From Candidatus Sericytochromatia bacterium (lineage in GTDB: Bacteria > Cyanobacteriota > Sericytochromatia > S15B-MN24 > JAQBPE01), in assembly GCA_040400605.1 (NCBI GenBank), contig JBBAPZ010000003.1:126507-190506 (forward strand): a stretch of 64,000 nucleotides of DNA, given 5' to 3'. The notes under the pieces are model-generated. The model saw only the letters and a program-made list of their open reading frames with translations. It made no database searches and was not told the origin of the DNA. Of the stretch, positions 8,866 to 53,846 are shown in pieces. Within the stretch, counting starts at the first letter, position 1, and each line of letters starts with the position of its first letter. Both the position numbers and the translations under genes were made by a program.

Positions 8866-9480
8866 TTGGCGGCACCGCTTGATTGGGCAGCACTGTCACT
8901 GAAGCCGGCCAGTGCGTTATTGCGTGAAAATGGGCCATCCGGGCGTTTGTCGGATCTTGTCGGCTGGGTATCCGTGGTGCAGGAAAGCACGCATGGCGCA
9001 CGTTTGACTTGGGCCATGCATCTGATTTGGGAGGCGCAGCGGCGACAAGAGCCAGTTGCCTGGATTGGCGCACCGGGGAGAACGTTTTACCCGCCGGATG
9101 CGATCGCCAATGGTGTCGACCCCGACGCACTGCCTGTCATCCGGGTATCAAGCGGAACGCAACAACTGCGTGCCGTGGACCATTTGTTACGTTCCGGCGC
9201 ATTCGGACTCATCGTGATTGATGGGGCACCTGATTGCCACCTATCCAATCGGGTGTTGTCGCGCTTGGGGCCCCTGGCCCGCCGTCACGTGACGGCAGTG
9301 GTCTGTTTGGTGTCTGCCGACGCTCGCGTCGACGCGGCGATCGACATCCGGGCGCAAATTGAACAACTCCGGCTGAAAGATGGCAGGTATCGGTGTCGCT
9401 GGCGATCGCTCAAAGACCGCCGTCGAGCCCCGGGAGCGGAAAGCGTTGAGGTGGTTCATGGGCCGATTGGCTTGTGTTGA
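8866..9480 (+). CDS. imuA: ImuA, RecA-like SOS mutagenesis accessory protein
   Basis: RecA-fold motifs VAWIG..FYPP..GVD..LPVIR and LLRSGAFGLIVID without an intact Walker A. First gene of the imuB-dnaE2 operon. RBS GGGAGG. Confidence 0.85.
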   Translation: MAAPLDWAALSLKPASALLRENGPSGRLSDLVGWVSVVQESTHGARLTWAMHLIWEAQRRQEPVAWIGAPGRTFYPPDAIANGVDPDALPVIRVSSGTQQLRAVDHLLRSGAFGLIVIDGAPDCHLSNRVLSRLGPLARRHVTAVVCLVSADARVDAAIDIRAQIEQLRLKDGRYRCRWRSLKDRRRAPGAESVEVVHGPIGLC

Positions 9481-10942
9481 CATCCCTGCTTTGGCTTTAC
9501 AGGTGTTGCTGAAGGCGCATCCGGAATGGCAGGGTGAGCCGGTTGTGTTATTGGACCGTCCCCAAGCGTCCGGGGTGGTGCAAGCGGTCAATGCCGCGGC
9601 GCAAAAAGGGGGGGTGCAGCCAGGCTTGCGTTATGCCGTCGCGTTAAACCGTTTGCCGAATTTGCGTGGGGGCACGGTGGATGCGTCCACGCTCAAGGAG
9701 GCGCAAGCGGCTTTATTGGGGTATTTGCAGGGTTTCAGTCCTGAGGTTGAGCCAGCGGAGTCCGGCGTTTTCTGGTTGGATGTGGTGGGTTTGGCGGGTT
9801 TGTACCCGTCACTGGATGTATGGGCGCAGGCATTGCGGGCTGCGCTGAAGGCCGAGGCCTATGTGGTGGGCGTGGTGGTGGGTTTCAGCCGTACGGGGAC
9901 TCGTTCCGTGGCGCGTGTACTCAACGGGCGCAAGCATCTGGTGTTTGAGGGTGTGGAGGCGGAGCGGGAGGTGGTGGCCCGTGTGCCGTTGAATGTGCTT
10001 GGTTGGCCTGCCGGCGTGGTCGCGGCATTGGGACAATTGGGTGTCACGCGGGTGGGGGCGTTTTTGCGCTTGCCCGCAGCGGGTATCGCGTCGCGTTTTG
10101 GGGAGGAGGCATGGAAAGCGTATCAGGAGTTGCGGGGCGATCGCTTTTGGCCTTTGCAGCCGGCAAAGCTTGCCTTGCCGCATGCGCTCACGGTGAACTG
10201 GGACCATGGCGAGACGTGTCGTGTGCGGATGTTGTTTCAGTTAAAAGGGCCGGTGACGCAACTCTTGCAGGAATGTGCAAGCAAAGGCCAGGGAGCAACG
10301 GCGCTGAGTGTTGATTTTTGGGATGAATCGGGTGATGGCCGATGCTTGGCGCTGCGTCTGGCGGAGCCGACCGTGGCGGGGTTGGTGGTTTTGAATTTGT
10401 TGCAATTGCGTCTCGAATCATTTGACTTTGGCGACAGGGCGGTTGTGGGTGCGCGTGTCGCGATGGTGGGGGTGCCTGTGCGCGTTCACCAAGAAACCTG
10501 GCTTTTGGCGGCACCCAAGCGTGACAAACGCCTGGCCAATCGGGCATTTGAGCGTTTGCGGGCCCTGTTTGGGGATGAGGATGTGGTGGTCAAGGCAGTC
10601 CTGTGCGATCGCCATTTGCCTGAAGAGCGCTTTGATTGGCAGCCGTTGACCCAGTTGTCTGATGCCGCCCCCAAGGAGCCGGAAGGTGGCACCTTGGTGC
10701 GTCAATTGTGGCAGCCGCCGCGTGAAATTACGCCACGTCCGACCACAGGGGACTGGTACCCCTTGGGTTGGGCGGCGGGTGCGGTGGTGGGTTGGGAGGG
10801 GCCGTATCGTTTGGCTGGTGGTTGGTGGCAGGATGCAACGGTACGGGATTATCACCGGCTTGAATTGTCACAGGGTGCCTTGCTATGGGTGTTCAACGTC
10901 CCTGAGCAGGGGCGGTGGTTTTTACAGGGGGCGGTATGTTGA
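9458..10942 (+). CDS. imuB: ImuB, inactive Y-family polymerase-like protein
   Basis: MGRLACVDIP..ALQ, VNAAAQKGGV.PG, FSPEVE, C-terminal GPYRL.GGWW...RDY. Start at ATG 9458 with RBS GAGGTGG, overlapping the imuA end. Confidence 0.9.
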   Translation: MGRLACVDIPALALQVLLKAHPEWQGEPVVLLDRPQASGVVQAVNAAAQKGGVQPGLRYAVALNRLPNLRGGTVDASTLKEAQAALLGYLQGFSPEVEPAESGVFWLDVVGLAGLYPSLDVWAQALRAALKAEAYVVGVVVGFSRTGTRSVARVLNGRKHLVFEGVEAEREVVARVPLNVLGWPAGVVAALGQLGVTRVGAFLRLPAAGIASRFGEEAWKAYQELRGDRFWPLQPAKLALPHALTVNWDHGETCRVRMLFQLKGPVTQLLQECASKGQGATALSVDFWDESGDGRCLALRLAEPTVAGLVVLNLLQLRLESFDFGDRAVVGARVAMVGVPVRVHQETWLLAAPKRDKRLANRAFERLRALFGDEDVVVKAVLCDRHLPEERFDWQPLTQLSDAAPKEPEGGTLVRQLWQPPREITPRPTTGDWYPLGWAAGAVVGWEGPYRLAGGWWQDATVRDYHRLELSQGALLWVFNVPEQGRWFLQGAVC

Positions 10943-10989
10943 GCGGAGCCGCAATTGTGTGCAGGGGCGTTACGAGGAGGCCATAGGGG

Positions 10990-13900
10990 ATGGGGGTGGC
11001 CTTGTGTTGTCGCAGCAATTTTTCTTTTCTGGAGGGTGCCAGTCATCCGGAGGAACTGGTTGAAGCGGCACATCGTCTGGGGTTGCGGGCGCTGGCGTTG
11101 TGCGATCGCAACGGGTTGTACGGGGTGGTGCGGGCGCATCAACGAGCGCAGGCACTGGGGTTGCAACTTGTGATTGGCGCGCAGGTGAGTGTGTCAGATG
11201 GATCATCCATTGTGTTGCTGGTGCAGGACCGTGTGGGTTATGCGAACTTGTGCAAGGTGTTGAGCATCGGGTGTATGCGATCGCCAAAAGGACAATGCAC
11301 GCTCGAATGGTTTGAAATTGCGATGCATGCCACGGGGTTGATCGCGCTTTGGGGCGGTACCGAAGGCAGTTTGGGTGCAACGATGCCCCCGGATGACGTG
11401 GCACGGTGTTTGCAGGATGCCTTCGGTGAGCGTCTGTACGCGCTCATCACCCGCCACCTGAATGAGGCGGAGAAAGAACGCGAGGCGCGCATTCGAGAAC
11501 GCGCAAGGCGTTATGGGATTCAAACGGTCGCAGCGACGGAGGTGTTGTATCACGCGCGTGAGCGTCAGCCCTTGCAAGACATTTTGACATGTATTCGATG
11601 TGGGGTTGCGTTGGATCAAGCCGGACGGCGTTTGAAAGCCAATGCTGAACATGGTTTGAAAGGCGCGCAGGAACTTGCGGCGCTGTTTGAGGATGTGCCC
11701 GAAGAGTTGGCGAGGGCCGAGGCGATCGCCCGTTCGTGTACGTTTTCGCTCAAAGAACTGCGTTACCGTTACCCCTCTGAGCATCTGCCCAATGGGATGA
11801 CCACGATGGATTATCTGAAGCAATTATGCGCGGAAGGTGCGCGTAAGCATTATGGCGGGATGATTCCTGAAGCGGTGACGCAGCAACTGGCACATGAGTT
11901 TGAATTGATTGAATCGTTGGATTACGGCGGTTATTTTCTCTCCATGCGCGAGATCGTCGACTTTTGTCGCGAACGGGGAATCTTGTGTCAAGGGCGAGGT
12001 TCCGCGGCCAATTCGGCGGTGTGTTTTTGCTTGGGAATCACGGCTGTAGACCCGGTACGGATGGGGTTGCTGTTTGAACGTTTTATTTCAGCGGAGCGCG
12101 CCGAGCCACCGGATATCGACTTGGATATTGCGCACCAGCGGCGTGAAGAGGTGATTCAGCATGTGTATGAGAAGTATGGCCGCAGCCATGCAGCGATGGT
12201 AGCGGTGGTCATCACTTACAAAGGACGCCTGGCTGTGCGGGAGGTGGGCAAGGCTTTGGGCCTTCCTGAAACGGAGTTGGGTCGCTTGGCCAAGTTTGTC
12301 GGGCACGATGGACATTTGACGCCCGAAAAGCTGGCATTGGCAGAATTGAAGGCGGATAAACCCGTTTATGGGTATTTGATGCAGTGGGTACGCGAGTTGG
12401 TTCATTTTCCGCGTCACCTGTCGATTCATCCTGGGGGATTTTTACTTGGGCATCAGCCCGTGAATGAATTGGTGCCGATTGAAAACGGTGCCATGCGCGA
12501 TCGCACGGTGATTCAGTGGGATAAAAACGATGTCGAGGCCTTGGGCCTGTTCAAGGTGGATCTTCTCGGTTTGGGGGCTTTGACCCATCTTTCGGAATGC
12601 TTCGCGCTGATTCAGGCCCATCGTGGCATCACACTCACCATGGCCACGGTGCCTGCCGAAGACCCTGCCACCTACGCGATGTTGGGCAAGGGTGACAGCG
12701 TGGGGGTATTTCAGGTGGAAAGTCGGGCGCAAATGGCGATGCTGCCGCGTCTGAAACCGAAGACCTATTATGATTTGGTGATCGAAATCAGCTTGGTACG
12801 GCCTGGTCCAATCACAGGCGGCATGGTGCATCCTTACCTTCGACGCCGCAATGGTGAAGAAGCCATTGATTATGCCTTGGATTGCCTGCGGCCGGTGCTG
12901 GAAAAAACACTGGGGGTGCCCCTGTTTCAGGAACAGGTCATGAAATTGGCCATGGTCGCGGCTGATTATACGCCAGGTGAAGCGGATCAACTCCGTCGCG
13001 ACATGGCTGCCTGGCGCAAGCGTGGTTCCATCGCCCGGCACCGGAAACGCCTTATTGAGCGCATGCAAGCCCGTGGCGTGCCCATCGCGTTCGCCGAACG
13101 CGTCTTTAAACAGATTGAGGGATTCGGGGATTATGGTTTCCCGGAGGCACACGCGGCCAGTTTTGCGCTCATCACGTATATAGGCGCCTATCTTAAATGT
13201 CATTACCCGGCTGAATTCACGTGTGCGCTGCTCAATGCCCAGCCCATGGGGTTTTATTCCGTCGCTACGATTGTGGAAGATGCGCGTCGCCATCAGGTTA
13301 CGGTACGGCCTTTATGCATCAACCAAAGCGGGTTGGCCAGTACACTGGAGCCAGACGGTGACAGATGGGCCATTCGGATGGGTCTGCGTCACGTCAAAGG
13401 GCTCAGTCGTCAAGCGGCTCAGCGCTTGCGCGCTAACGGTCCTTATGATGATCTCAAAGCCGTGTTGACGCGCAGCGGTGTAGAACGTGGCGACTTGCTC
13501 AAACTGGCTCAAAGCGGTGCATGTCACAGTCTGGGTTGCGATCGCCGCAGTGCGCTCTGGCAGATACGCGGTCATCAAAAGCCCTTGTTTGACGGAAGCA
13601 TGAGCATCCCGGAAGCCATGCCCACTTTCCGAAACCTGTCTTTGTTCGAAGCCATCAACTGGGATTACCAGCATGCCGCGCACAGTACACGGGGGCATCC
13701 CTTGGGTCCTTTGCGCGAACAGTTGCTCAAAAAAGGGTTGCGTGACGCCCGCGGTCTGATGCAACTGCCGGATCAAACACCCGTGCGTTATGCCGGCCTG
13801 GTCATCTGCCGCCAGCGCCCGGGTACGGCGTCGGGTGTGGTCTTTTTAACCCTTGAGGATGAAACAGGCTTCATGAATCTGGTGGTGTGGCCAGGCATCT

Positions 13901-14058
13901 ATGAGCGGCACAAGCGCTTGATCAAAACCGTGTCGTTGCTCGGAGTCAGTGGCAAGCTGCAAGTCAAGCACGGTGTCACACACCTGATCGCGACACGCTT
14001 TTGGCGTCCTGAGATCGACACAGGCATCCAGGCCAGCGCGAGCCGCGATTTTCGCTAA
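10990..14058 (+). CDS. dnaE2: Error-prone DNA polymerase III alpha (DnaE2/ImuC)
   Basis: SNFSFLEGASHPEEL, QGRGSAANS, PPDIDLD, FKVDLLGLG, YGFPEAHAASFA, RQRPGTASG, terminal SRDFR. Confidence 0.97.
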   Translation: MGVALCCRSNFSFLEGASHPEELVEAAHRLGLRALALCDRNGLYGVVRAHQRAQALGLQLVIGAQVSVSDGSSIVLLVQDRVGYANLCKVLSIGCMRSPKGQCTLEWFEIAMHATGLIALWGGTEGSLGATMPPDDVARCLQDAFGERLYALITRHLNEAEKEREARIRERARRYGIQTVAATEVLYHARERQPLQDILTCIRCGVALDQAGRRLKANAEHGLKGAQELAALFEDVPEELARAEAIARSCTFSLKELRYRYPSEHLPNGMTTMDYLKQLCAEGARKHYGGMIPEAVTQQLAHEFELIESLDYGGYFLSMREIVDFCRERGILCQGRGSAANSAVCFCLGITAVDPVRMGLLFERFISAERAEPPDIDLDIAHQRREEVIQHVYEKYGRSHAAMVAVVITYKGRLAVREVGKALGLPETELGRLAKFVGHDGHLTPEKLALAELKADKPVYGYLMQWVRELVHFPRHLSIHPGGFLLGHQPVNELVPIENGAMRDRTVIQWDKNDVEALGLFKVDLLGLGALTHLSECFALIQAHRGITLTMATVPAEDPATYAMLGKGDSVGVFQVESRAQMAMLPRLKPKTYYDLVIEISLVRPGPITGGMVHPYLRRRNGEEAIDYALDCLRPVLEKTLGVPLFQEQVMKLAMVAADYTPGEADQLRRDMAAWRKRGSIARHRKRLIERMQARGVPIAFAERVFKQIEGFGDYGFPEAHAASFALITYIGAYLKCHYPAEFTCALLNAQPMGFYSVATIVEDARRHQVTVRPLCINQSGLASTLEPDGDRWAIRMGLRHVKGLSRQAAQRLRANGPYDDLKAVLTRSGVERGDLLKLAQSGACHSLGCDRRSALWQIRGHQKPLFDGSMSIPEAMPTFRNLSLFEAINWDYQHAAHSTRGHPLGPLREQLLKKGLRDARGLMQLPDQTPVRYAGLVICRQRPGTASGVVFLTLEDETGFMNLVVWPGIYERHKRLIKTVSLLGVSGKLQVKHGVTHLIATRFWRPEIDTGIQASASRDFR

Positions 14059-40357: not shown

Positions 40358-41797
40358 TCAGGCTTTTTTTCGAAGGCTATCAGAGCCGACACGTTGTTGC
40401 AACCACTGTTTAAAAATCGCGGTCAACTGGTGGGTGTAAAGCAGGCGTGCCGGATAGAGCAGTTGCCATTGCAACGTTATCCAGTCCGTATCGTTGACGA
40501 GCCGCACAAGGGCTTCGGACCGGACCACGGTGTCACCGTTGAGGTGCTTGGCCACTTCTGATAACAGACGTTCAAGGTGACACCAAATCGCACAGGCCGC
40601 CTCGGCCTTGGCAAAGCCGTGCCACGGCAGTGCCTGTGCCTGACTCAAACCATACCAAAAATCGATAACCGGTCGGTTACGGGTCATCAATGCCAGGCAA
40701 TCAAGCCAGGCTTGCCTTTGCGCAGGCGTTGGTGTCCACTCCAATAAAGGCGGTGCGACGTGTGTCTGACGATGCATCAAGATGGGATCCGTGCCAAGGC
40801 CCAAATGGCGACGAATCACCGCAACCAGCGTGTCGGTTGCGTACAGCGGCAGTTGCCGATGAGCGCGTTCAATTTCGCCATAACTAAGTTTGCGACTGGT
40901 CAAATCCCGTACAACGTGGGTTAAAACGGCTTCAAGCAACGCTTGTGTGGGCTTGAGTGACAAACCTTGCTGCAAGAGTGCACGAAAGACGAAACGAAGT
41001 TCCGTGCGTGACACATAACGTTCCATTTCATGGTCATAGCCGGCATTTTGAGCTTCCGCAAGCAACAAATCCATCTGTTTTGAACCAAAAAACAAGTGGG
41101 CATGAGCCAAAAGACAGCTTTCCAGGTGTCGACTCAACGCCTGCAACCATTGCAAGCGCGTCAATTCCGCTGGTGGCTTGATCGCAGTTTCAATCGGCAT
41201 CCAGCAAATAAAGCCCCGACTGGCGGGATCACGCAGCCAATCATACGGAAAACCGGCGGGCTGCTCGGCATCCTCATCACGCAGGATACACACCTGACCC
41301 GGAAATGCTTCACCACAACAGAGAACCTGACTTCGGGCATAAAGGGTGTAGCCAAGGCTATGGTTGTGCAACGGGTCGAGCGTGACAATTAAGGGCGGCA
41401 AAGGAAAACCGAGCCCCTCACTGAGTTTGATGCGCGTCGATTCAAACCACTGTCCAATTTCAGAATGTTCCAGCCCAACGCTTGAGGCCCATTTCAAGCA
41501 TTCTCGCAACAGTTCGGAACCCAATCCAAGGCGCAATGGCGGCTCAACCAAACTGACCGCCGTCTGATCGAGTCCCCGCTCGGCATCGATGTGCCGTACG
41601 GTCCAAACTGATTCTCCCGGTTCGAGCCATAGTCCGACCGCACCGAGTTCCTCCGTGATGGTGCGCACCTGTTGCTCGGTATGCCGCATCAGAAATGCAT
41701 CAAGACCGAGATACTCCAACAGACATAATTCACCAAACAGGTAGTGACCGTGTTCCTTGCCATAGCGCGCGACCAGGCGTGTCAAAGGATGCGTCAA
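40358..41797 (-). CDS. Soluble protein containing an FHIPEP (FlhA cytoplasmic)-like domain
   Basis: R..LSEGLGFPLPPLIV, DPA...WM, LSRHLE..L.AHAH.FFG and FRALLQQGLSLK...LLEAV resemble FlhA-C. No TM segment. Confidence 0.65.
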   Translation of the reverse strand: MTHPLTRLVARYGKEHGHYLFGELCLLEYLGLDAFLMRHTEQQVRTITEELGAVGLWLEPGESVWTVRHIDAERGLDQTAVSLVEPPLRLGLGSELLRECLKWASSVGLEHSEIGQWFESTRIKLSEGLGFPLPPLIVTLDPLHNHSLGYTLYARSQVLCCGEAFPGQVCILRDEDAEQPAGFPYDWLRDPASRGFICWMPIETAIKPPAELTRLQWLQALSRHLESCLLAHAHLFFGSKQMDLLLAEAQNAGYDHEMERYVSRTELRFVFRALLQQGLSLKPTQALLEAVLTHVVRDLTSRKLSYGEIERAHRQLPLYATDTLVAVIRRHLGLGTDPILMHRQTHVAPPLLEWTPTPAQRQAWLDCLALMTRNRPVIDFWYGLSQAQALPWHGFAKAEAACAIWCHLERLLSEVAKHLNGDTVVRSEALVRLVNDTDWITLQWQLLYPARLLYTHQLTAIFKQWLQQRVGSDSLRKKA

Positions 41798-43875: not shown

Positions 43876-45597
43876 TTAACGTTGATCCCCGTGAGTCGGT
43901 GTGACTGCGGTGTGACCATCGAGCGATGCCCAAAGATCCGCCAATTGCGACTCAATCCATTGGGCGCGGGTGTCATCCGACCACACCAGGCGTCTTTGAT
44001 GCAGGTTTGCCATCAGCTGTGCAGCACTTGACGCAATGGTGCGTGCGCCGGCGGGGTCCAAGATGGTGAGCCGGGTGCGGCGTTCGAACCAGTCCCGCAA
44101 GGCGTATGCCGATTCATGTCGCACGGAATAAACCAGCTCCGCCGGATAAACAGGAATGAAAGAACCACCAAAGGGCTTGGCCCAGTCTGGATTTTCGTTG
44201 AGAATGTCACGTAATTGTGCAAAGTTGGTCCCATAACGATTGGCCAGAACGCGAACCGTTTCAAGGGGCAGGGTCCGGGTCTCGCGCTCGCATTCCTGAA
44301 CGAAGGCATCGAATGGGCGGCCGCCCAATTCGCTGCCTGAAATTGGCGCCGTTTCGATACGGGAAGGCGGGGCTTTGCGATCGCCAAGAATCCGCTCAAT
44401 GGCTTGACAGGCCATTGTCCGGTACCCTGTCAGCTTCCCGCCAGCAATCACAAAAAATCCACTCAGCGGCTCAAACACAACGTGCTCCCGCGACACCTGT
44501 GACGCTCCCAAGCCTGCCTGTGACGGCGCGATGAGCGGTCGCCAACCAGCGAAACGACCAATCACATCCTGAGAGGTCAGCTGGCTGTTCAGAACCTGGT
44601 TCGCCGCATCCAGCACATAGGCTTCTTCCGCCTCGCTCACGGTGACATCCTCATCAAGATAGTGAAAATCCCCGCTGGGTCCATCGTAATCCGTATCCGT
44701 CGTGCCGATGATCGTGCGCCCGCCCCAAGGAATCACGAACATCACCCGGGGTTCACGCTCCGACGGCGAGCACGAACGCATGACGATGGCCTGTTCGGTG
44801 AGTTGACGATTCACAACCACATGGACGCCCTTGGTTGGACGCAAATGCAAAGGCGCGTCTGGCAACACCAGACGAGTAACGGCGTCCACCCAAGGACCAG
44901 CAGCGTTGATCACCTTGCGCGCACGCAACGTTTTTTCTGCACCTGCAAGATGATCCCAAACACGAACATGCAACAAGCCGCTGGCCCCCGGCCGTGTCAC
45001 CCCCAACACCTCCACATAGTTAAACGCGCTCGCATTGCAAGCCACCGCTGACTTCAAGGTCTCAATCACCAAGCGCGCATCATCCGTAATGCCATCACAA
45101 TAGGCAAATACCCCTGATAACCGCTCCGCGCGCAATGCTGGCGCTGCCGTGATGGCTGCTTGCCGATTCAACCAGCGATGAATTCCCGACCGGCCCCGCG
45201 AAGCGAAATTGGCCAGACAATCATACAAAGTGAGCCCCACATTGACGACCCAACCGCGATCATATCCGCCCCGCACAATCGGGAAAAAATAAGTCAGACG
45301 CCTGGCGACATGCGCCGCATCCTCAAACAGGCGATCGCGTTGGGCCAACGACTCAAACACCAGCCTGAACTGCCCCTGCTCCAAGTAACGCACCCCACCG
45401 TGCAACAACTTCGAACTTTTCGAACTCGCGCCTGACGCAAAGTCATTCTTTTCAAGCAGCATCACACGCAATCCGCGCATCGCGCCTTCCCACGCAATAC
45501 CTGCTCCGACAATGCCGCCACCGATGATCACCAAATCGTAATCAATTCCACAAACACCATCATCCAACTGTTTTCGCTCGAACATCACATCAGCCAT
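43876..45597 (-). CDS. glpD: FAD-dependent glycerol-3-phosphate dehydrogenase
   Basis: IGGGIVGAG, DFASGASSKSSKLLHGGVRYLE, DDARL, KGVH, GTTD, SREH, GGKLTGYR, RRTRL. Confidence 0.95.
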   Translation of the reverse strand: MADVMFERKQLDDGVCGIDYDLVIIGGGIVGAGIAWEGAMRGLRVMLLEKNDFASGASSKSSKLLHGGVRYLEQGQFRLVFESLAQRDRLFEDAAHVARRLTYFFPIVRGGYDRGWVVNVGLTLYDCLANFASRGRSGIHRWLNRQAAITAAPALRAERLSGVFAYCDGITDDARLVIETLKSAVACNASAFNYVEVLGVTRPGASGLLHVRVWDHLAGAEKTLRARKVINAAGPWVDAVTRLVLPDAPLHLRPTKGVHVVVNRQLTEQAIVMRSCSPSEREPRVMFVIPWGGRTIIGTTDTDYDGPSGDFHYLDEDVTVSEAEEAYVLDAANQVLNSQLTSQDVIGRFAGWRPLIAPSQAGLGASQVSREHVVFEPLSGFFVIAGGKLTGYRTMACQAIERILGDRKAPPSRIETAPISGSELGGRPFDAFVQECERETRTLPLETVRVLANRYGTNFAQLRDILNENPDWAKPFGGSFIPVYPAELVYSVRHESAYALRDWFERRTRLTILDPAGARTIASSAAQLMANLHQRRLVWSDDTRAQWIESQLADLWASLDGHTAVTPTHGDQR

Positions 45598-45922
45598 ATC
45601 CCTATGTTACCTGATGAAGGTCCCTTCGCACCCCTCTCGGTAAAGCAAAAACCAGGAATCAACAACCGTTCCCCAAACCGCTTGAGCGTTTCCAAAAGCA
45701 CGGGATCGCTTAAGACAAGAAATCCGCTCAATCAAGTCACTGCCTTATCAATCGCAAGCAGTTGCGCCAGGAAACCATCAGTTTCGGTTGTCAGACGAAG
45801 TACACGCAAACACACATCAAATGCGCGTCTCAAACGCTTCCCGCCTTGATCGCACATCACACTGGCGTCTCAACGTGAGGCGCAACCATTCCGCTTAAAA
45901 CAAGCCAGTCGTTCCACCCATG

Positions 45923-45959
45923 ATCGATCGAGATCATCTCAGCCATGATCTCGATCGAT
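45923..45959. repeat. Perfect 15-bp inverted repeat rich in GATC
   Basis: ATCGATCGAGATCAT-ctcagcc-ATGATCTCGATCGAT. Confidence 0.9.
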
Positions 45960-46392
45960 GACACCAGATGACTCGTTACATCGCTTAACATTTTGACACT
46001 GACTCGACTCAGGCGTTCCGTGATAGAGGTGCGTAAAATCACATCCTGGTGCGTATCAGCCTCAAATGCACCGACGGGTCAACCACTCCCGTTTGATGTC
46101 AAGTCTTGACCGCGTGCGACATAACACGCTTGATCGGTCTTTCGACACAATGTTAACTTCAACAAGGCAACGTTTGGATTGGGGTGGCCCACGCAGTCGG
46201 CGCCAGTCACATCAAGGATGATGGACACTCGCGATTGTTCGGACGCAAGTTCAAAACCGATCGCGACTAAAAAAAATCAATCCGGTTTACGGTGCTTGGC
46301 AAAACGTTTTGAAACAGGGCCACCCGCCTGGTGGGTCTGAATCAAGACACGGTTGGGACTCAGGAACCCAGGTCTTTAAAAAACGTATAGAC

Positions 46393-46467
46393 AAAAAAAA
46401 GCGGCCGCCAGGCTGACGGCCACCTCTCAATAGGTCAATTTTGAGTGTAGCACGCCTGGCAACCGCT
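46393..46467 (-). ncRNA. Putative counter-transcribed (antisense) RNA hairpin/terminator upstream of the rep-like gene
   Basis: Minus strand AGCGGTTGCCAGGC...GCCTGGCGGCCGCT forms a 14-bp stem with two G.U pairs, has an inner CTCAA/TTGAG stem, and ends in a run of T. No minus-strand gene with coding character ends here. Confidence 0.55.
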
Positions 46468-46517
46468 GACAAGGGGTTGCGTTCATTTTTTGAAGCAGCC
46501 CGTAGAAAGTGCTGCTT

Positions 46518-47252
46518 ATGTTCTCACTGTTTGATGCGCTGTCTGAAGCGCGTAATTTGGGTTGGAATCTCTCGACGATGTTGGTTAAAGCATATGTAGA
46601 TGAACGGGGTATGCATCCAGTGGGATTGATTGCGGATGCGTGCGCGTTGTCTGTTCGAACGGTTGAACGGGCATTGGCAGTGTTGAAACAGGCGTCGTTG
46701 TCAGAAAAATCGGTTTTGACAACTTTGTCGCATGAACATGACAAACATAACAAAATTAATAAAAGCACCACGACAGAGATGGCGTGCGCGACACATCCTG
46801 ACAAGGCAGGTTTGTCGGCTACTTGGGCAACGGACCCATTGGCTGAGCGCTTGCTTGCGTGTGAGGTGTTGCCGTGGTGTGTGGAAATCATTATGACGCG
46901 GGTGCAACGGGAGGTGATTGAGCGTCAGCTTGATGCGCACGCATGGCGTTTGAAAACCGGTTATCCTTTTAAGTCGCATCCGGCGCGTTTTTTATTTCGC
47001 GCGTGTTTGAACGATTATGCGTTGCCCGATGTTCGTACCGCGGTTGCCAGCGAGCCTCAAGCGCGCGCCTTACCTGAACCAGCGCCTGCGATTGGTGCGA
47101 CGATGACGCGGGAGGGTGCCTTGAATGTCATTCGGATGGGGTTGCGTTCGCGCTTGCCCGTGATGCGTGAAGAAGCGTTGCGGCTTGCGCGGTCGTGGGA
47201 CATTGATGTGTCACTGTTGCGCGGTGCGGCGTTGACGGGTGCGCTGGCTTAG
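46518..47252 (+). CDS. HTH plus DnaD/replisome-organiser-like putative replication initiator
   Basis: N-terminal HTH IADACALSVRTVERALAVL, low-complexity linker HEHDKHNKINKSTTT, C-terminal domain REVIERQL..W...HPARFLFRACLNDY. Confidence 0.6.
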   Translation: MFSLFDALSEARNLGWNLSTMLVKAYVDERGMHPVGLIADACALSVRTVERALAVLKQASLSEKSVLTTLSHEHDKHNKINKSTTTEMACATHPDKAGLSATWATDPLAERLLACEVLPWCVEIIMTRVQREVIERQLDAHAWRLKTGYPFKSHPARFLFRACLNDYALPDVRTAVASEPQARALPEPAPAIGATMTREGALNVIRMGLRSRLPVMREEALRLARSWDIDVSLLRGAALTGALA

Positions 47253-47477: not shown

Positions 47478-48155
47478 TCACGTGGTAGGGCTGTTGGTCT
47501 GCTTGGATTGCGTGCACAGATGGGGGGATTGTCGTTGCAGGGCGGCTGGGGCGAGTTGGATTAGGCGATCGACGACATCGTCAAGCACGTGGTTGTGGTC
47601 GGTGATGTGATTGAGGCTTGTCATGACCGTGGCGTCTAGCCCACAGGGGTTAAGCATGCGAAAGGCTTGCAAGTCTGTTGAGACGTTGAGCGCGAGACCG
47701 TGATACGTGACCCAGTGGCTGACCGCGATGCCCACCGAAGCGATTTTGGATGAACCAACCCACACGCCGGTCAGTTGGGGGTGCCGGTGCGCGGTAATCG
47801 CATAGGTGTCAAGCAACGTGATGAGCCAGCCTTCCAGGCGTCGCAGATACGCATGCAGGTCCCGTTCGTGCGTTTGGAGGCGCAAGAGTGGGTAAGCCAC
47901 AATTTGTCCGGGACCGTGGTAGGTTGCATCGCCGCCGCGTTCGATAGCCTGAACGGGTACGTTGCATGACCCATGGACATTCGTATTGGCGTTTTTCTTA
48001 CGGCCCAGGGTGATGATGGGATCGTGTTCAACGACCAGTAGGGTATCGGGGGCGAGGCCATCTCTGATGGCGATTAACAAATCGCGTTGGCGTTGCCAGG
48101 TGACGCCATGGGGTTCGCGGCCGAGCCATTGGATGTCAAGTGGTGCGGTAGGCAA
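47478..48155 (-). CDS. lipB: Octanoyltransferase LipB
   Basis: VEHDPIITLG, RGGDATYHGPGQIVAYP, KIASVG, HGLALNV, PCGL. TTG start after GGAGG. Confidence 0.95.
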   Translation of the reverse strand: MPTAPLDIQWLGREPHGVTWQRQRDLLIAIRDGLAPDTLLVVEHDPIITLGRKKNANTNVHGSCNVPVQAIERGGDATYHGPGQIVAYPLLRLQTHERDLHAYLRRLEGWLITLLDTYAITAHRHPQLTGVWVGSSKIASVGIAVSHWVTYHGLALNVSTDLQAFRMLNPCGLDATVMTSLNHITDHNHVLDDVVDRLIQLAPAALQRQSPHLCTQSKQTNSPTT

Positions 48156-48303
48156 ATGGGGCTTCCTCCGGGAAGTGTAACGGATAGCAGATTTTAGCAT
48201 TCCTGGCTGACTGATTTGCCAATCCTGATGGAACGGGGGTACGATGAAAGCTGATTCCGTTGGGCTCATCGATAGATGAGTGTCGTAGGTGGGGAGCTGA
48301 TTT

Positions 48304-51117
48304 GTGAACGCTGACACCAGTTCTTTGTATGCGGGCAACGCGGCCTTTGTTGAGGCCTTGTATGAGACGTATTTGTTGGATCCCCAAGCCGTAGATGGCG
48401 TTTGGCGGCAATATTTCGATACCTTGCGTGCGGGTCAGTCTGGGCCGGAAGTGCCGCATGCGCCGATCCAGGCTGCATTCGTGGCCCAAGGCCGTGCGGT
48501 GGGTGTACGGCGGGACGGGGGGGGGGCACGTCCAAACTTTGGTTCGTTATTCGACGCTTACCGTAGCGATGGTCATCAGGTGGCGCGAATCAGCCCGTTG
48601 TCGTTGCGGCAGGCGGTTGCGGTGCCGGAGTTGGAGTTGGGGCATCATGGCTTGAGTGAGCGTGACTTGGTGCAGGCCGTTGACGATTCGCGCAGTCGGG
48701 ATTTGGGGACAACCGCGAAGGAGGCAGTGGCGAATGCGCGGCGCATTTATTGTGACAGTGTTGGTTACGAATACATGCATTTGCCGCGCGTCGAGCGCGA
48801 GTGGTTGCGCGAGCGGATTGAGCGGTCGGGCGGGCGGGCGGTGTTGACGTCTGGACAGCAACGGCGGATTTATGAAAAGTTGGTGGCGGCGGAGGGGTTG
48901 GAGCGTTATCTGCATCAGCGTTATGTGGGGCAAAAGCGCTTTTCGCTGGAGGGTGGCGACACCTTGATTCCTGTTTTGGATCACCTGTTCGATCGTGCCG
49001 GGGTGCAGGGCGTTCAAGAGATTGTGATGGGGATGGCTCATCGGGGTCGCCTCAATGTGTTGATCAATGTCATGGGCAAGCCGAGCGGCGAATTGTTTGA
49101 GGAGTTTGAAGGCAGGAAGGTTTATCCGGAGGAGTTGGCCGGGGATGTCAAATACCACTTGGGCTTTTCATCCGATGTTGAGACTGCCGGTGGGCCCGTT
49201 CATCTGTCGTTGGGTTTTAATCCGTCGCATTTGGAGCTGATCAATCCTGTCGTCGAGGGGTCTGTGCGCGCGCGTCAGGACAGGCGGGAGGATACGCAAC
49301 GCGTGAAGGTGCTTCCTGTGCTGATTCATGGTGATGCGGCGGTAATTGGTCAAGGCGTCGTGACTGAGACCTTGAATCTGTCGCAGTTGCGTGGCTATGC
49401 CACCGGCGGTTCGATTCATATCGTTATCAACAATCAGGTGGGTTTCAGTATCAGTGATCCGCAAGATGCCCGTTCGAGTCGGTATTGTACGGACGTGGCC
49501 AAGATGGTTGAAGCGCCTGTTTTTCATGTGAACGGGGATGATCCGGAGGCAGCCATTTTTGTGACTGAGTTGGCTTTGGCGTATCGCCAGACTTTTCACA
49601 AGGATGTATTCGTGGATCTGGTGTGTTTCAGACGCCATGGCCACAATGAGTCGGATGAACCGCGTGCCACACAGCCTGGCATGTATCGTCAAATTGATGC
49701 CCACCCGGGGGTTTGCGCGCGCTATGGTGGGCAACTGCAGGCACTCGGGGTGCTGACGCCTGCGGATGTTGCTGCGATTGCCAGCGCTTACCGTGATGCA
49801 TTGGATGCGGGTAAGGTGGTTGCTGCTGCGAAAGAGACTGTGGGGCGAATGAACAGAGGGGTGGACTGGGAGCCGTTTTTGAGCCTTGATTGGCGTCCCC
49901 CGGCTCACAGTGCCGTATCTGTTGCACGTCTGCAGGATTTGGGCCGTGCGCTGACCAGCTTGCCCGATGATTTGGTTCTGCATCCCCGTGTGGCGAGTGT
50001 CATCAAGGCACGGCGGGAGATGGTTGCGGGTGGTGCGTCTATTGATTGGGGTTTTGCTGAGAATTTGGCTTATGCTTCTTTGTTGACTACTGGTTTCCCG
50101 GTTCGTATCAGCGGGCAAGACAGTGGCCGGGGTACATTTTTTCATCGGCACGCGGTGTTGCATGACCAACGGGAGAATGATTTGCCTGAGGGGCGTTGTT
50201 ATGTACCATTGAGGCACTTGGCTGAAGGGCAGGCGCGTTTTGAGGTGATTGATTCGGCGTTGTCGGAAGAAGCGGTATTGGGTTTTGAGTATGGATATAC
50301 CAGCAACGAACCGAATGCCTTGGTGATTTGGGAAGCGCAGTATGGGGACTTCGCCAATGGTGCGCAGGCGGTGATCGATCAATTCATCAGTGCGGGCGAA
50401 TCGAAATGGCGTCGCTTGTCGGCGCTTGTCATGATGTTGCCTCACGGTTATGAGGGGCAGGGGCCCGAACACTCATCAGCGCGCCTTGAGCGTTTCTTGC
50501 AGTTGTGTGCGGAGCAGAACATGCAGGTGTGTGTTCCGAGCACACCGGCACAAATGTTTCATCTGTTGCGGCGTCAATTGTTGCGTCCGGCGCGGAAACC
50601 GTTGGTTGTCATGAGCCCGAAGAGCATGCTGCGGCATCGACTGTCGGTGTCGACGTTGGAGGAGTTGGCGTCAGGGGGATTTGATGAATTGATCCCCGAG
50701 TCTCGGGCAATCGAGGGTATGACGCGTGTCGTTTTGTGCAGTGGGAAACTTTATTACGACTTGTATGAAGCGCGCGACAAGCATGGTTTGGCCAATGTCG
50801 CATTGGTGAGATTGGAGCAGTTGTATCCTTTCCCGTCGGGCGCTTTGACCCGGGAGCTTGCGCGTTTTCCAAAGGCGGAGGTGGTTTGGGCGCAGGAAGA
50901 GCCCCATAATCAGGGGGCCTGGCTGTCAATCCAGGAGGATCTGCGGGCCTGCCTGGGTGCGGGACAAACCTTGTTGCCTGCGACGCGTCCACGTGCTGCG
51001 TCGCCCGCCGTTGGTTATGCCAGCAAGCATGCGGTGCAGCAGCAAGCGTTGATTCAGGGCGCGTTGGGATTGGTGCCTGTTCTGGCTGCCACTGCAGTGT
51101 CTGCGGCGGCGACTTGA
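48304..51117 (+). CDS. sucA: 2-oxoglutarate dehydrogenase E1
   Basis: [62 protein letters not shown]. Confidence 0.98.
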
Positions 51118-51154
51118 ACCGGGTTTAGGATGCGGCATTTACGTAGGAGTGGCC

Positions 51155-52333
51155 ATGATCGTTGAAGTCAAGGTTCCCGTTTTTTCGGAGTCAGTCAGTG
51201 AAGGCACCTTGCTTGCCTGGGCCAAGCCATTGGGTGCGCGTGTCGAACGGGGTGACAAGCTGATTGATATTGAAACCGATAAGGTGGTGCTAGAAGTTTT
51301 TGCCCCGCAGTCCGGTGTTTTGACGGCGTTGATGAAACAGGAAGGGGATGTGGTCACGGCGGAAGAGGTTTTGGCCGCGATCGATACGGCGGCTGCGGCC
51401 GAACCGGTGGTTGCCGCGGCGGTTGGTCAAACCGAGGCATCGGCGACGGAGGCCTCAGCTGGTGTTTTGGAACGGTCGGGTCCGGCGGTGCGTAAGTTGC
51501 AGGCGCAGACGGGAGTCAATCTGGAGCAGGTGCCGGCGACCGGCAAGGATGGTCGGGCAACCAAAGGGGATGTTTTGGCACATCTGAATACGCCGGCGCC
51601 GGTTGAAGCGGTGGCACCGGTTGTATCGGGTGTTCGCCCGTCCAAGCGCGTTCCGATGACCCGTATTCGTGCGCGGATTGCGGAGCGTTTGAAGGAAGCA
51701 CAGAACACGGCGGCATTGTTGACGACCTACAATGAAGTTAACATGCGGTCAGTGATGGCGTTGCGCAAGCAGTATCAGGATGCGTTCACCAAAAAGCACG
51801 GCATCAAGCTCGGGTTTATGAGCTTTTTTGTCAAGGCTGCGGTCGAGGCGTTGAAGCAGTATCCCGTATTGAATGCGTCGGTGGATGGCAAAGACATCAT
51901 TTACCACGGTTTTTATGATATCGGGATTGCAGTGGCGAGTGAGCGCGGGTTGGTGGTGCCGATTGTGCGGGATGCGGATCAGCTATCCCTTGCGCAAATC
52001 GAGAAGGCGATCGCCGGTTATGCTGCCAAGGCCCGGGACAACAAGCTGACCTTGGATGACATGGCGGGCGGAACTTTCTCCATCACCAATGGTGGAACAT
52101 TCGGCTCGATGCTTTCCACCCCCATCTTGAACCAGCCGCAAAGCGCGATTCTTGGCATGCACAACATCGTGGAGCGCCCTATCGTTGAAAATGGTCAGAT
52201 TGTGGCGGCACCTGTGATGTATTTGGCGCTTTCTTATGATCACCGCATCATTGATGGTCGAGAAGCGGTGCTGTTTTTGGTCAGCATTAAAAATGCTTTG
52301 GAGGATCCGGCGCGGATGCTTTTGGATATCTGA
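51155..52333 (+). CDS. sucB: Dihydrolipoyl succinyltransferase E2
   Basis: Lipoyl motif [34 protein letters not shown]. Confidence 0.97.
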
Positions 52334-52430
52334 CCCAGATTGGCTTTCGGGTAGCCGGCAACCGGCTGCCCATTCCGCTTGAACTTGATGAATGGGCCCG
52401 TGATGACATTCGCGAGTCTTGAATGAGGCA

Positions 52431-53846
52431 ATGAACGTGGCACAAACTTTTGACGTTGTGGTGATCGGTGGTGGACCGGGCGGCTATGTGGCGGCCATTC
52501 GGTGTGCACAGTTGGGTTTGAGTACTGCTTGTGTTGACGCTGGGCGCAGCCCGCAGGGGCAGGTGAGTCTGGGTGGAACGTGTCTGAATGTCGGGTGTAT
52601 TCCGAGCAAGGCGTTGCTTGATTCGTCCGAGCAGTATGAAAAGCTGAAAGAACTGGGTCATCACGGCATTGAAGTGAGTGGCGTCGAGTTGAATCTATCG
52701 CGGATGTTGGCACGCAAGGATGCGGTCATTGCAAAAATGGCCGGTGGGATTCAGGGATTGTTCAAGAAAAACAAGGTGACTTCCTACTGTGGGGTTGGTC
52801 GTTTGCAAGAGCGTGCAGGTGATCGGTGGCAGATTGCAGTGGGTGAGGAGACGTTGCACGCGACGCATGTGATCGTCGCCACGGGTTCTGTGCCGCGTCC
52901 GTTACCCTTGGCGCCTTTTGACGGAGAGCGCGTGGTGGATAATGCGGGGGCGTTGGCTTTTGAAACGGTGCCCAAGCGTTTGTGCGTGATTGGTGCCGGG
53001 GTGATCGGTGTCGAACTCGGCAGCGTTTGGCGGCGTTTGGGAGCAGATGTGACGATTTTGGAGGCAGCGCCGAGTTTTTTGGCGGCTGCTGATGAGGCGA
53101 TCGCCAAAGAGGCGCTCAAATACCTGACGCAACAGGGATTGCAATTCAAGTTTGGTGTGGCAATTGAGGCTGTCAGTTCTGATGCCGATGGCGTGCGCGT
53201 GCGCTATGGCCATGAGGGCCAGCCTTGCGAGTTGGTTGCGGACAAGCTCATCGTTGCAATTGGGCGTCTTCCCAACACGGCCGGCTTGGGTGCCGACGCT
53301 GTGGGATTGGAATTGGATGATCGTGGTTTTGTTAAAGTGTCTCACTGGCGGACCAATTTACCGAACGTCTGGGCGGTCGGTGATGTCATTGGTGGGGCGA
53401 TGCTCGCGCACAAGGCAGAAGAAGAGGGTGTGGCTGTCGCTGAACTGATTGCCGGCCAGGCGGGGCACGTTAATGAGGCGGTGATTCCGTGGGTAATTTA
53501 TACCTCGCCTGAAATTGCGTGGGTCGGGCAGACGGAACAGGCGCTCAAGGCAGCTCAAGTACCCTATCGAACCGGCAGGTTTCCGTTTGCGGCCAATGGA
53601 CGCGCGCACGGTCATAACGACACGCGTGGTTTTATCAAGGTTTTGGCACATGAGTCATCGGATCGCATCCTGGGTGTGCATATGATCGGGCCGAACGTTT
53701 CGGAATTGATTGGAGAGGCCGTGACGATGATGGAGTTTGCGGCATCAAGTGAAGACCTTGCTCGCACGATTCACGCGCATCCGACCTTGTCTGAAGTGCT
53801 AAAAGAAGCCGCTCTGGCGGTCGACAAGCGCGCAATTCACGCGTGA
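52431..53846 (+). CDS. lpdA: Dihydrolipoyl dehydrogenase E3
   Basis: [38 protein letters not shown]. Confidence 0.97.

Follow-up and report, generated by a model that had tools for sequence, protein, structure and literature searches.

What is a gene that looks like a replication initiator, with an antisense RNA apparently set against it, doing among the housekeeping genes of a Candidatus Sericytochromatia genome? The window, the 64,000-nucleotide stretch of DNA analyzed here, lies on contig C3 (235 kb) of a draft assembly of 3.7 Mb in 174 contigs (94.55% complete, not closed), designated G000; relatives' genomes are G003, G004, and so on, and L020, L021, and L024 are the relatives' loci of the gene, which we call X. 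Our answer is that X is very probably an antisense-controlled initiator. On balance we lean toward reading the locus as a captured mini-replicon of plasmid or phage descent that serves, or for a long time served, as a second origin subordinate to that of DnaA, in agreement with the "domesticated secondary origin" offered in the first-pass annotation of this DNA; an initiator-like gene, a predicted counter-transcribed RNA, an A+T-rich island, and a skew switch all point that way. The features are as follows, in window coordinates.

43876-45597, minus strand: glpD, left flank of X
45598-46517: non-coding region from glpD to X, 920 nt, GATC-enriched
45923-45959: GATC-rich palindrome, perfect, 15-bp arms, 7-nt spacer
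46119-46159, plus strand: ACATAA-N4-CTTGAT motif and weak predicted X promoter (-35 TTGATC 46130-46135, extended -10 TAACTT 46154-46159)
46391-46437, minus strand: predicted counter-transcribed RNA, ~47 nt (short 5' tail, 14-pair hairpin 46428-46396, U-run)
46400-46467, plus strand: long leader hairpin of the X mRNA, an alternative, predicted "on" fold in which GCCAGGC pairs with GCCTGGC
46444-46472, minus strand: antisense promoter, TTGTCA-17-TG-n-TACACT (-35 46472-46467, -10 46449-46444)
46473-46520, plus strand: stem before the ribosome-binding site (RBS), invariant GTGCTGC block, and start codon, predicted to become inaccessible upon antisense binding
46518-47252, plus strand: gene X, 244 aa, putative replication initiator (helix-turn-helix [HTH] with a weak PF13730 match, linker, four-helix domain, three-helix tail)
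46701-46769: A+T-rich island, putative origin, around an H-D/E-H motif; palindrome CATGATCATG in three of three relatives, CATGAACATG here
47478-48338, minus strand: lipB, right of X, the ancestral glpD neighbor in the same orientation, with a lagging-strand codon signature

The locus and its conserved parts

The non-coding stretch before X, first put at about 900 nt, measures 920 nt, and the X reading frame has two possible starts, 46509 (GTG) and 46518 (ATG), before its end at 47252; homologues begin at the ATG. The contig carries thrS, glnS, htpG, and sucA by family scan and, by eye from translations, rpsB-tsf-pyrH-frr, recA, rpsA, and smc, so it looks like main chromosome. The earlier impression that no integrase or par genes accompany X held among the window genes scanned: integrase, ParA/ParB, and helicase families were found in none of 33 further genes and 6 scanned earlier (10 of the 33 had no family, 4 were judged on their best five matches, and sucB and lpdA were identified by eye). 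No phage or gene-transfer-agent families occurred among the window genes scanned, and searches with consensus patterns for parS and dif-like sites gave nothing near X.

The glpD-X-lipB synteny holds in a sister species (~93% identical), where a single contig spans X and lipB together with the last part of glpD and the first part of sucA, and breaks down in other genera. Relatives G005 and G007, which are without X, share the order lipB, one gene (HEAT-repeat-like by eye), glpD, cysE, and a dioxygenase gene, implying that X replaced the gene between lipB and glpD. On the other side of lipB, at window 48304-53846 on the plus strand, lies sucA-sucB-lpdA. In relatives this place is taken by a kinase gene and a pyruvate-dehydrogenase-type cluster, and the sucA-sucB-lpdA cluster may be a later arrival.

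Full-length X occurs in 3 of 47 genomes of the class (G000, G003, and G004), one copy each, a count that leaves out weak matches in G023, G039, and G045 and a second weak one in G004. When six candidates per genome were scored in a phylum sample of 401 genomes, six genomes had X relatives (three full-length, three HTH-only), all in one taxonomic order, so that this sample brought no carriers beyond those of the class. Homologues, 22 of them close among 4111 candidates and 33 as cluster representatives at E<=0.001, come from records labeled Candidatus Sericytochromatia or Cyanobacteria bacterium. Searches of plasmids and phages by tblastn gave no X relatives (best E of 0.3 and 5), and viral contigs gave none by protein and none by leader pattern. 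Judged from these sequence searches, the family appears small and so far found only in Sericytochromatia; the literature covered on this group, which included few subscription papers, gave no account of replication origins or of the X family. Presence is patchy (3 of 8 genomes of the taxonomic family) and neighbors are not fixed, and the protein is conserved across genera at about 45 to 50% identity as well as in a sister species.

Four distinct loci could be compared, those of the window, L020, L021, and L024; two others, L022 and L023, were set aside as not independent, their protein being identical to X. The cassette is complete in all four. On the minus strand they share an antisense promoter of the form TTG, 17 to 18 nt, TGn-TAnnnT, followed by a predicted RNA of 47 to 48 nt ending in a U-run; a transcript of 80 to 120 nt had been anticipated, and promoter and terminator positions in the window give about 47 nt instead. 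The hairpin of this RNA folds far better than shuffled sequences at every locus (z of -4.0 to -5.6). It is conserved beside homologues, with 14 of 14 pairs kept in four of four loci. Five one-side changes were seen, all to or from G-U, which fits minus-strand folding; no change was compensatory in this small set of four sequences. No Rfam family reached its cut-off at the locus (best STnc70, 22.7 of 40 bits).

The long hairpin first assigned to the antisense strand is real, and the inverted repeat at 46400-46467 does close more fully on the minus strand (-39.7 versus -29.9 kcal/mol). Because the antisense promoter lies inside an arm of this repeat, the antisense RNA has room for no more than the inner terminator hairpin at 46428-46396, and the long repeat most likely acts on the mRNA, where its GCCAGGC/GCCTGGC helix shows one compensatory change, A-U to G-C, in L021. 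The stem described at the RBS is also present, at about 46473-46500. Blocking the antisense target in the folding model frees a segment that then pairs with the start region and the invariant GTGCTGC block, and the modeled cost of opening the RBS rises by 5.4, 2.3, 14.5, and 5.0 kcal/mol across the four loci, a shift reached by 0, 2, 0, and 0 of 60 shuffles of the middle segment. We judged the RNA switch by these opening energies in place of the mean unpaired probability of the RBS, which moves little (0.57 to 0.47, 0.48 to 0.36, and unchanged in two loci). The "on" fold of L024 lies 8 to 12 kcal/mol above the best fold and so would need to form during transcription, and in L021 the opening-cost shift disappears with a longer downstream stretch. 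The leader anatomy is conserved, and the leader pattern recurs in the same 3 of 47 genomes as full-length X, once in each; the switch built on it is a modeled one.

Farther upstream, the ACATAA-N4-CTTGAT motif stands 314 to 445 nt before the ATG in four of four loci and occurs once in the whole G000 assembly, making it a possible autoregulatory site of X. The weak X promoter beside it was read by eye and was not listed by the promoter scan. GATC sites number nine in 45598-46517 (9.8/kb versus 4.75 genome-wide, rank 18 of 496 long spacers) and reach 15 to 17/kb upstream of X in three relatives. Where a background was available, GATC density before X is roughly double that of the genome concerned; G000 also has a Dam-family methylase gene of putative specificity. 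The GATC-rich palindrome that had drawn attention at first reading is perfect over its 15-bp arms, but we rejected it as a conserved part of the cassette, as it is one of 25 repeats of this kind in G000 and none of three relatives has a counterpart before X; it is probably species-specific.

The suggestion of an origin-like stretch inside the gene found support in an A+T island with synonymous constraint in four of four loci. The H-D-H motif in the disordered linker is near-invariant and is spelled CATGATCATG in the three GC-rich relatives, within a stretch of about 70 bp of low GC at third codon positions (GC3). GC3 of the island is 0.35 versus 0.55 for the rest of X in the window, and 0.43, 0.32, and 0.32 versus 0.92, 0.90, and 0.86 in L021, L020, and L024. 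All five island His and Asp codons end in T (CAT/GAT) in each of three relatives, against a background of 0.11 to 0.16 in the two genomes measurable, and this synonymous A+T bias argues for a constraint on the DNA. Rep-box repeats were not found. An A+T island commonly marks an origin that lies within a rep gene. Linker-coding DNA is the origin in pSK41 (PMC5703833), and silent changes to the A+T-rich region of repC abolish replication (PMC3155836); by analogy, the island is a putative origin of replication.

The X protein and the initiators it resembles

An AlphaFold model divides X into three folded parts linked by disordered stretches: an HTH (residues 1-67), a disordered linker (65-95), a four-helix domain (~100-170) with HPARFLFRACLNDY, and a three-helix C-terminal part (198-241). 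The layout first proposed, an HTH followed by a linker and a HPARFLFRACLNDY domain, therefore stands except for its single C-terminal domain, the model having a separate three-helix part at 198-241. Among 32 members of the X family, 21 match the PF13730 HTH at E<=0.1, below the family cut-off, and replication-initiation families of PHROGs match 14 and 12, weakly and possibly through the HTH only. RepA_N stands at rank 24 among the Atlas neighbors of X, a lead that may likewise come from the HTH alone; PF06970 (RepA_N) itself is absent for X and from the best 25 of 38 families for the 32 members (E<=0.1), the rest matching at most one member. Bac_RepA_C gave no match for X, and the RepC domains RP-C and RP-C_C were found neither for X nor among the families listed for the 32 members.

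The middle domain is modeled with confidence (pLDDT 92.7). The DnaD-like character given to the C-terminal domain in the first-pass annotation was not borne out by a significant match: Pfam, NCBIfam, and PDB gave no significant match to this domain, Foldseek against PDB returned nothing at E<=0.001, and the best solved folds, at Z of 5.3 in a wide search and 6.2 in a second look, were unrelated helical bundles, so these searches neither support nor exclude a DnaD-like fold. In a viral fold library the top matches (E of 0.085 to 0.84) included an unnamed phage protein (TMq 0.62) and, as matches 2 and 4, a replication protein (TMq 0.67, E 0.48) and a replisome organizer (TMq 0.54, E 0.84); DnaD itself stood at a nonsignificant TMq of 0.53 and E of 2.9. 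We treat the DnaD-like fold as a lead and not a result. The whole X model matches the folds of HTH proteins only.

By analogy with known systems, X resembles the pSK41/pPR9 RepA proteins and repC with its counter-transcribed RNA in how it would work, and lacks the domains and operon layout of both. Like X, the RepA_N initiator of pSK41 and its pPR9 variant have an HTH N-domain, a linker encoded, as is predicted for X, by the origin, and a helical C-domain; their antisense RNA induces an RBS-hiding stem, as modeled for X, and pPR9 carries the PF13730 HTH that X weakly matches (PMC5703833). Unlike pSK41, X has no RepA_N or Bac_RepA_C match, has an extra C-terminal part, and is located in a chromosome rather than on a plasmid. 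Its predicted RNA is about 47 nt with one hairpin, whereas that of pSK41 is about 83 nt with two (PMC5703833).

The repABC systems have, as is predicted for X, a counter-transcribed RNA hairpin of about 50 nt just upstream of the initiator, two alternative leader folds, and an intragenic A+T-rich origin without iterons or DnaA boxes, and, like X, methylase-type sites in the region (PMC3155836, PMC6090056). In contrast to repABC, X has no RepA/RepB genes or parS beside it and no RP-C match; its neighbors are glpD and lipB, and the ParB genes of G000 lie on contigs C5, C12, and C17. RepC is about 400 aa long, and X is much shorter. Control differs as well, a predicted translation block and GATC sites in X compared with termination and GANTC in repABC (PMC3155836, PMC6090056). 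In the same phylum, ssr7036/asRNA1/CyRepA1 of the Synechocystis plasmid pSYSA also places replication under antisense-RNA control, but CyRepA1 has primase and helicase domains that X lacks, and its control is ColE1-like (PMC9978351).

The mechanism that we envisage begins with a weak promoter that would yield an X mRNA with a leader of about 270 to 400 nt. A constitutive 47-nt antisense RNA would pair with this leader, and in the model the freed segment then covers the GTGCTGC block and start and blocks translation, so that the amount of X would track how many copies of the locus are present. As the examples of pSK41/pPR9 RepA and of RepC suggest, X may bind the A+T/GATC island in its own gene through its HTH, and its helical domains may recruit host replication proteins, including a helicase. 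Forks would leave both ways, and the fork opposing the oriC fork would be expected to reverse nearby strand bias, an effect fading with distance.

Strand bias at X and the DnaA origin

A switch in strand composition across the locus had been noticed by eye, and a cumulative-skew check run on the 235-kb contig confirmed it: the lowest point of C3 falls at window 46163 for GC skew and at 46430 for keto skew. Strand-corrected skew, defined as bias at fourfold-degenerate sites corrected for coding strand, is -0.13/-0.11 to the left and +0.13/+0.13 to the right within 40 kb of X for genes of both strands, with the best change point at window 44.0-46.5 kb. Compared with all gene boundaries of G000, the X boundary ranks 5 of 1915, 3 of 1498, 1 of 1162, and 4 of 666 at 10, 20, 30, and 50 kb (7, 3, 3, and 6 with X removed). 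A strand-bias switch of the kind left by an active origin is present at X, and block shuffles (200 runs) reach it in fractions of 0.60, 0.23, and 0.005 at 20, 30, and 50 kb; genome-wide significance is confined to the 50-kb scale, and the skew by itself is only moderately strong.

Comparison with relatives strengthens the link between the switch and X. Around lipB-glpD in G005 and G007, which are without X, skew is uniform, with 12 of 12 bins positive in one and 13 of 14 negative in the other. The z of lipB in G000 is -5.2, in the lowest 0.9% of 1957 genes, and its counterparts in relatives stand at +0.11, -0.03, and +0.17. As lipB has kept its ancestral orientation, an inversion at X would not give this lagging-strand signature; the genes to its right (sucAB-lpdA) are not ancestral neighbors, so a single gene carries the orientation argument. 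G003 has X elsewhere; there the step at lipB-glpD is at most small (0.01 to 0.08), whereas the gene boundary that precedes X ranks 1 of 314, 4 of 287, 1 of 259, and 9 of 236, with the dnaA region at 21 to 247, in a ranking that sampled 446 kb of 7.1 Mb (~0.45 Mb) and counted part of X. The genes flanking X in G003 give z of -5.9, -2.4, and +2.8 on their own; raw skew there shows no switch at X, and a comparable corrected switch lies on C99. L020 and L024 are too short for usable skew. The skew reversal dies away over about 6 kb in G003 and 12 to 45 kb in G000, and we infer that a reversal fading on one side is the expected trace of a subordinate origin inside a replichore.

Steps of origin polarity also occur away from any X homologue, at about 51-53 kb on C15, 222-226 kb on C2, and 45-55 kb on C11 of G000 and at about 70 kb on C99 of G003; these are rearrangements or further origins.

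X coexists with oriC. The idea that X replaces a lost dnaA was rejected, as G003 and G004 have X together with dnaA and DnaA-box clusters. These clusters adjoin dnaA in G003, G004, G005, and G007, and the dnaA block of G007 carries the top switch of its contig. At X, no box cluster of a DnaA-dependent oriC was found; at 0 to 1 mismatch to the consensus there are no boxes at X in G000, L020, or L021 and one in L024. G000 gave no DnaA-C or DnaN match, its Bac_DnaA match being an IstB-like frame, and it is without the whole jag-yidC-rnpA-dnaA-dnaN-recF-lepA block; since the block includes essential genes, the absence of dnaA is most likely an assembly gap. The only DnaA-box-like cluster of the assembly is on C80 (3.9 kb), whose genes (fabF, degP-like) look betaproteobacterial by eye and which is probably contamination.

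Competing readings and what the cassette would mean

Four alternatives have to be weighed against a captured second origin. A chromid is a replicon of its own that combines plasmid-type Rep and Par with core genes (PMC12456017), and X could be the main initiator of such a replicon, or of a split chromosome, that includes C3. The same cassette evidence would serve this reading, and imuABC, glnS, and a RecQ-like gene lie both on the X contig of G003 and on C3 (5 of 11 mapped genes, X included), all eight family genomes have three to five ParB genes, and skew stays near or above zero up to the end of C3. We nonetheless consider it unlikely: the housekeeping genes listed above sit on C3, ParB counts do not differ between genomes with and without X, no par genes were found near X among the window genes scanned, X lies at varying sites, and the reversed skew fades over the short distances given above.

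Somewhat less likely still is that an integrated plasmid or phage survives here as a silent remnant, repressed by its own antisense RNA, and that the skew flips are products of rearrangement. Patchy presence without fixed neighbors and the patchy skew elsewhere would suit a remnant, as would sequencing depth in a sister-species run, where the X contig does not exceed its flanks (11.5 versus 13.6 and 13.3, contig means only). Yet the gene has stayed intact, along with its promoter, hairpins, and island, across genera and in a sister species, the strand bias of lipB changed when its orientation did not, and the flip follows X to a second site in G003.

The Bartonella run-off origin, conserved, putatively phage-derived, and chromosomal, drives local bidirectional replication (PMC2697382), and it makes conceivable a domesticated escape origin that amplifies the region under some conditions and has no part in routine replication. 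Strand bias that is strongest beside X and then fades, together with the phage-like fold leads, would fit. Against this stand the housekeeping neighbors, window genes that, where scanned, include neither a phage cluster nor a gene transfer agent, and an antisense control cassette, which differs from Bartonella and would presumably curb runaway firing, and we regard the reading as improbable. Least probable of all is that X is an HTH transcription regulator with an antisense-controlled leader, its HDH binding metal, as a protein role leaves the all-CAT/GAT codons, the A+T island, and the skew flips unexplained and the HTH-only relatives are without the leader pattern, even though regulator HTHs are the only solved-structure sequence matches of X (best MarR, E 0.0009) and stand-alone HTH relatives exist. 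The latter are genes of 65 to 70 aa akin to the X N-terminus (L030, L031, and L032, in G011, G015, and G016), two of which directly follow activator-like genes (BTAD-like by eye).

For the captured second origin, precedents are partial. The usual view is that a bacterial chromosome has one DnaA origin, the known exceptions being fusions, laboratory suppressors, and phage escape replication. Vibrio cholerae NSCV1 has a single chromosome with two active origins, one of them a plasmid-type origin in the main chromosome as proposed for X (PMC6284228), and in Synechococcus elongatus a dnaA deletion is rescued by plasmid integration, a plasmid-type origin then driving chromosomal forks (PMC7198777). 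Those cases are whole-replicon fusions or laboratory suppressors (PMC6284228, PMC7198777). X differs in being a bare cassette of about 1.2 kb without par or integrase genes, at different sites per genus, and old enough for changed synonymous sites. Within the limited literature searched, we found no precedent for a bare conserved origin cassette at varying chromosomal sites.

More tentatively, X could represent a natural, stably inherited second origin: an antisense-controlled cassette of a new family that sits at different sites per genus, fires beside oriC, and may have overtaken oriC in G003. If so, it would be a case of natural origin capture, a small stand-alone cassette with its own copy control among housekeeping genes and an origin signature at two sites, and the bacterial counterpart of the origin captures that have been proposed in archaeal chromosomes. 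The cassette would also supply a replicon for a group in which, to our knowledge, genetic tools are lacking. Several cyanobacteria have multiple origins and DnaA-independent replication by an unexplained route (PMC7198777), and X bears on such replication in the same phylum.

Three further observations concern the same genomes. In three places in G000 (L045-L047; C5:190991-192788, C12:22175-~24000, and C17:21156-23120), an AAA_22 (ExeA-like) ATPase gene precedes parB in place of the usual ParA-ParB, one pair being Pfam-confirmed, possibly an unusual partition system. An imuA-imuB-dnaE2 mutagenesis cassette at window ~8900-14058 (plus strand), found also on the X contig of G003, has a short local skew step at its start. 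Finally, window 40358-41797 (minus strand) encodes a 479-aa protein, present also in G003, G005, and G007, that matches only part of FHIPEP (the FlhA-like cytoplasmic portion) and lies outside flagellar clusters.
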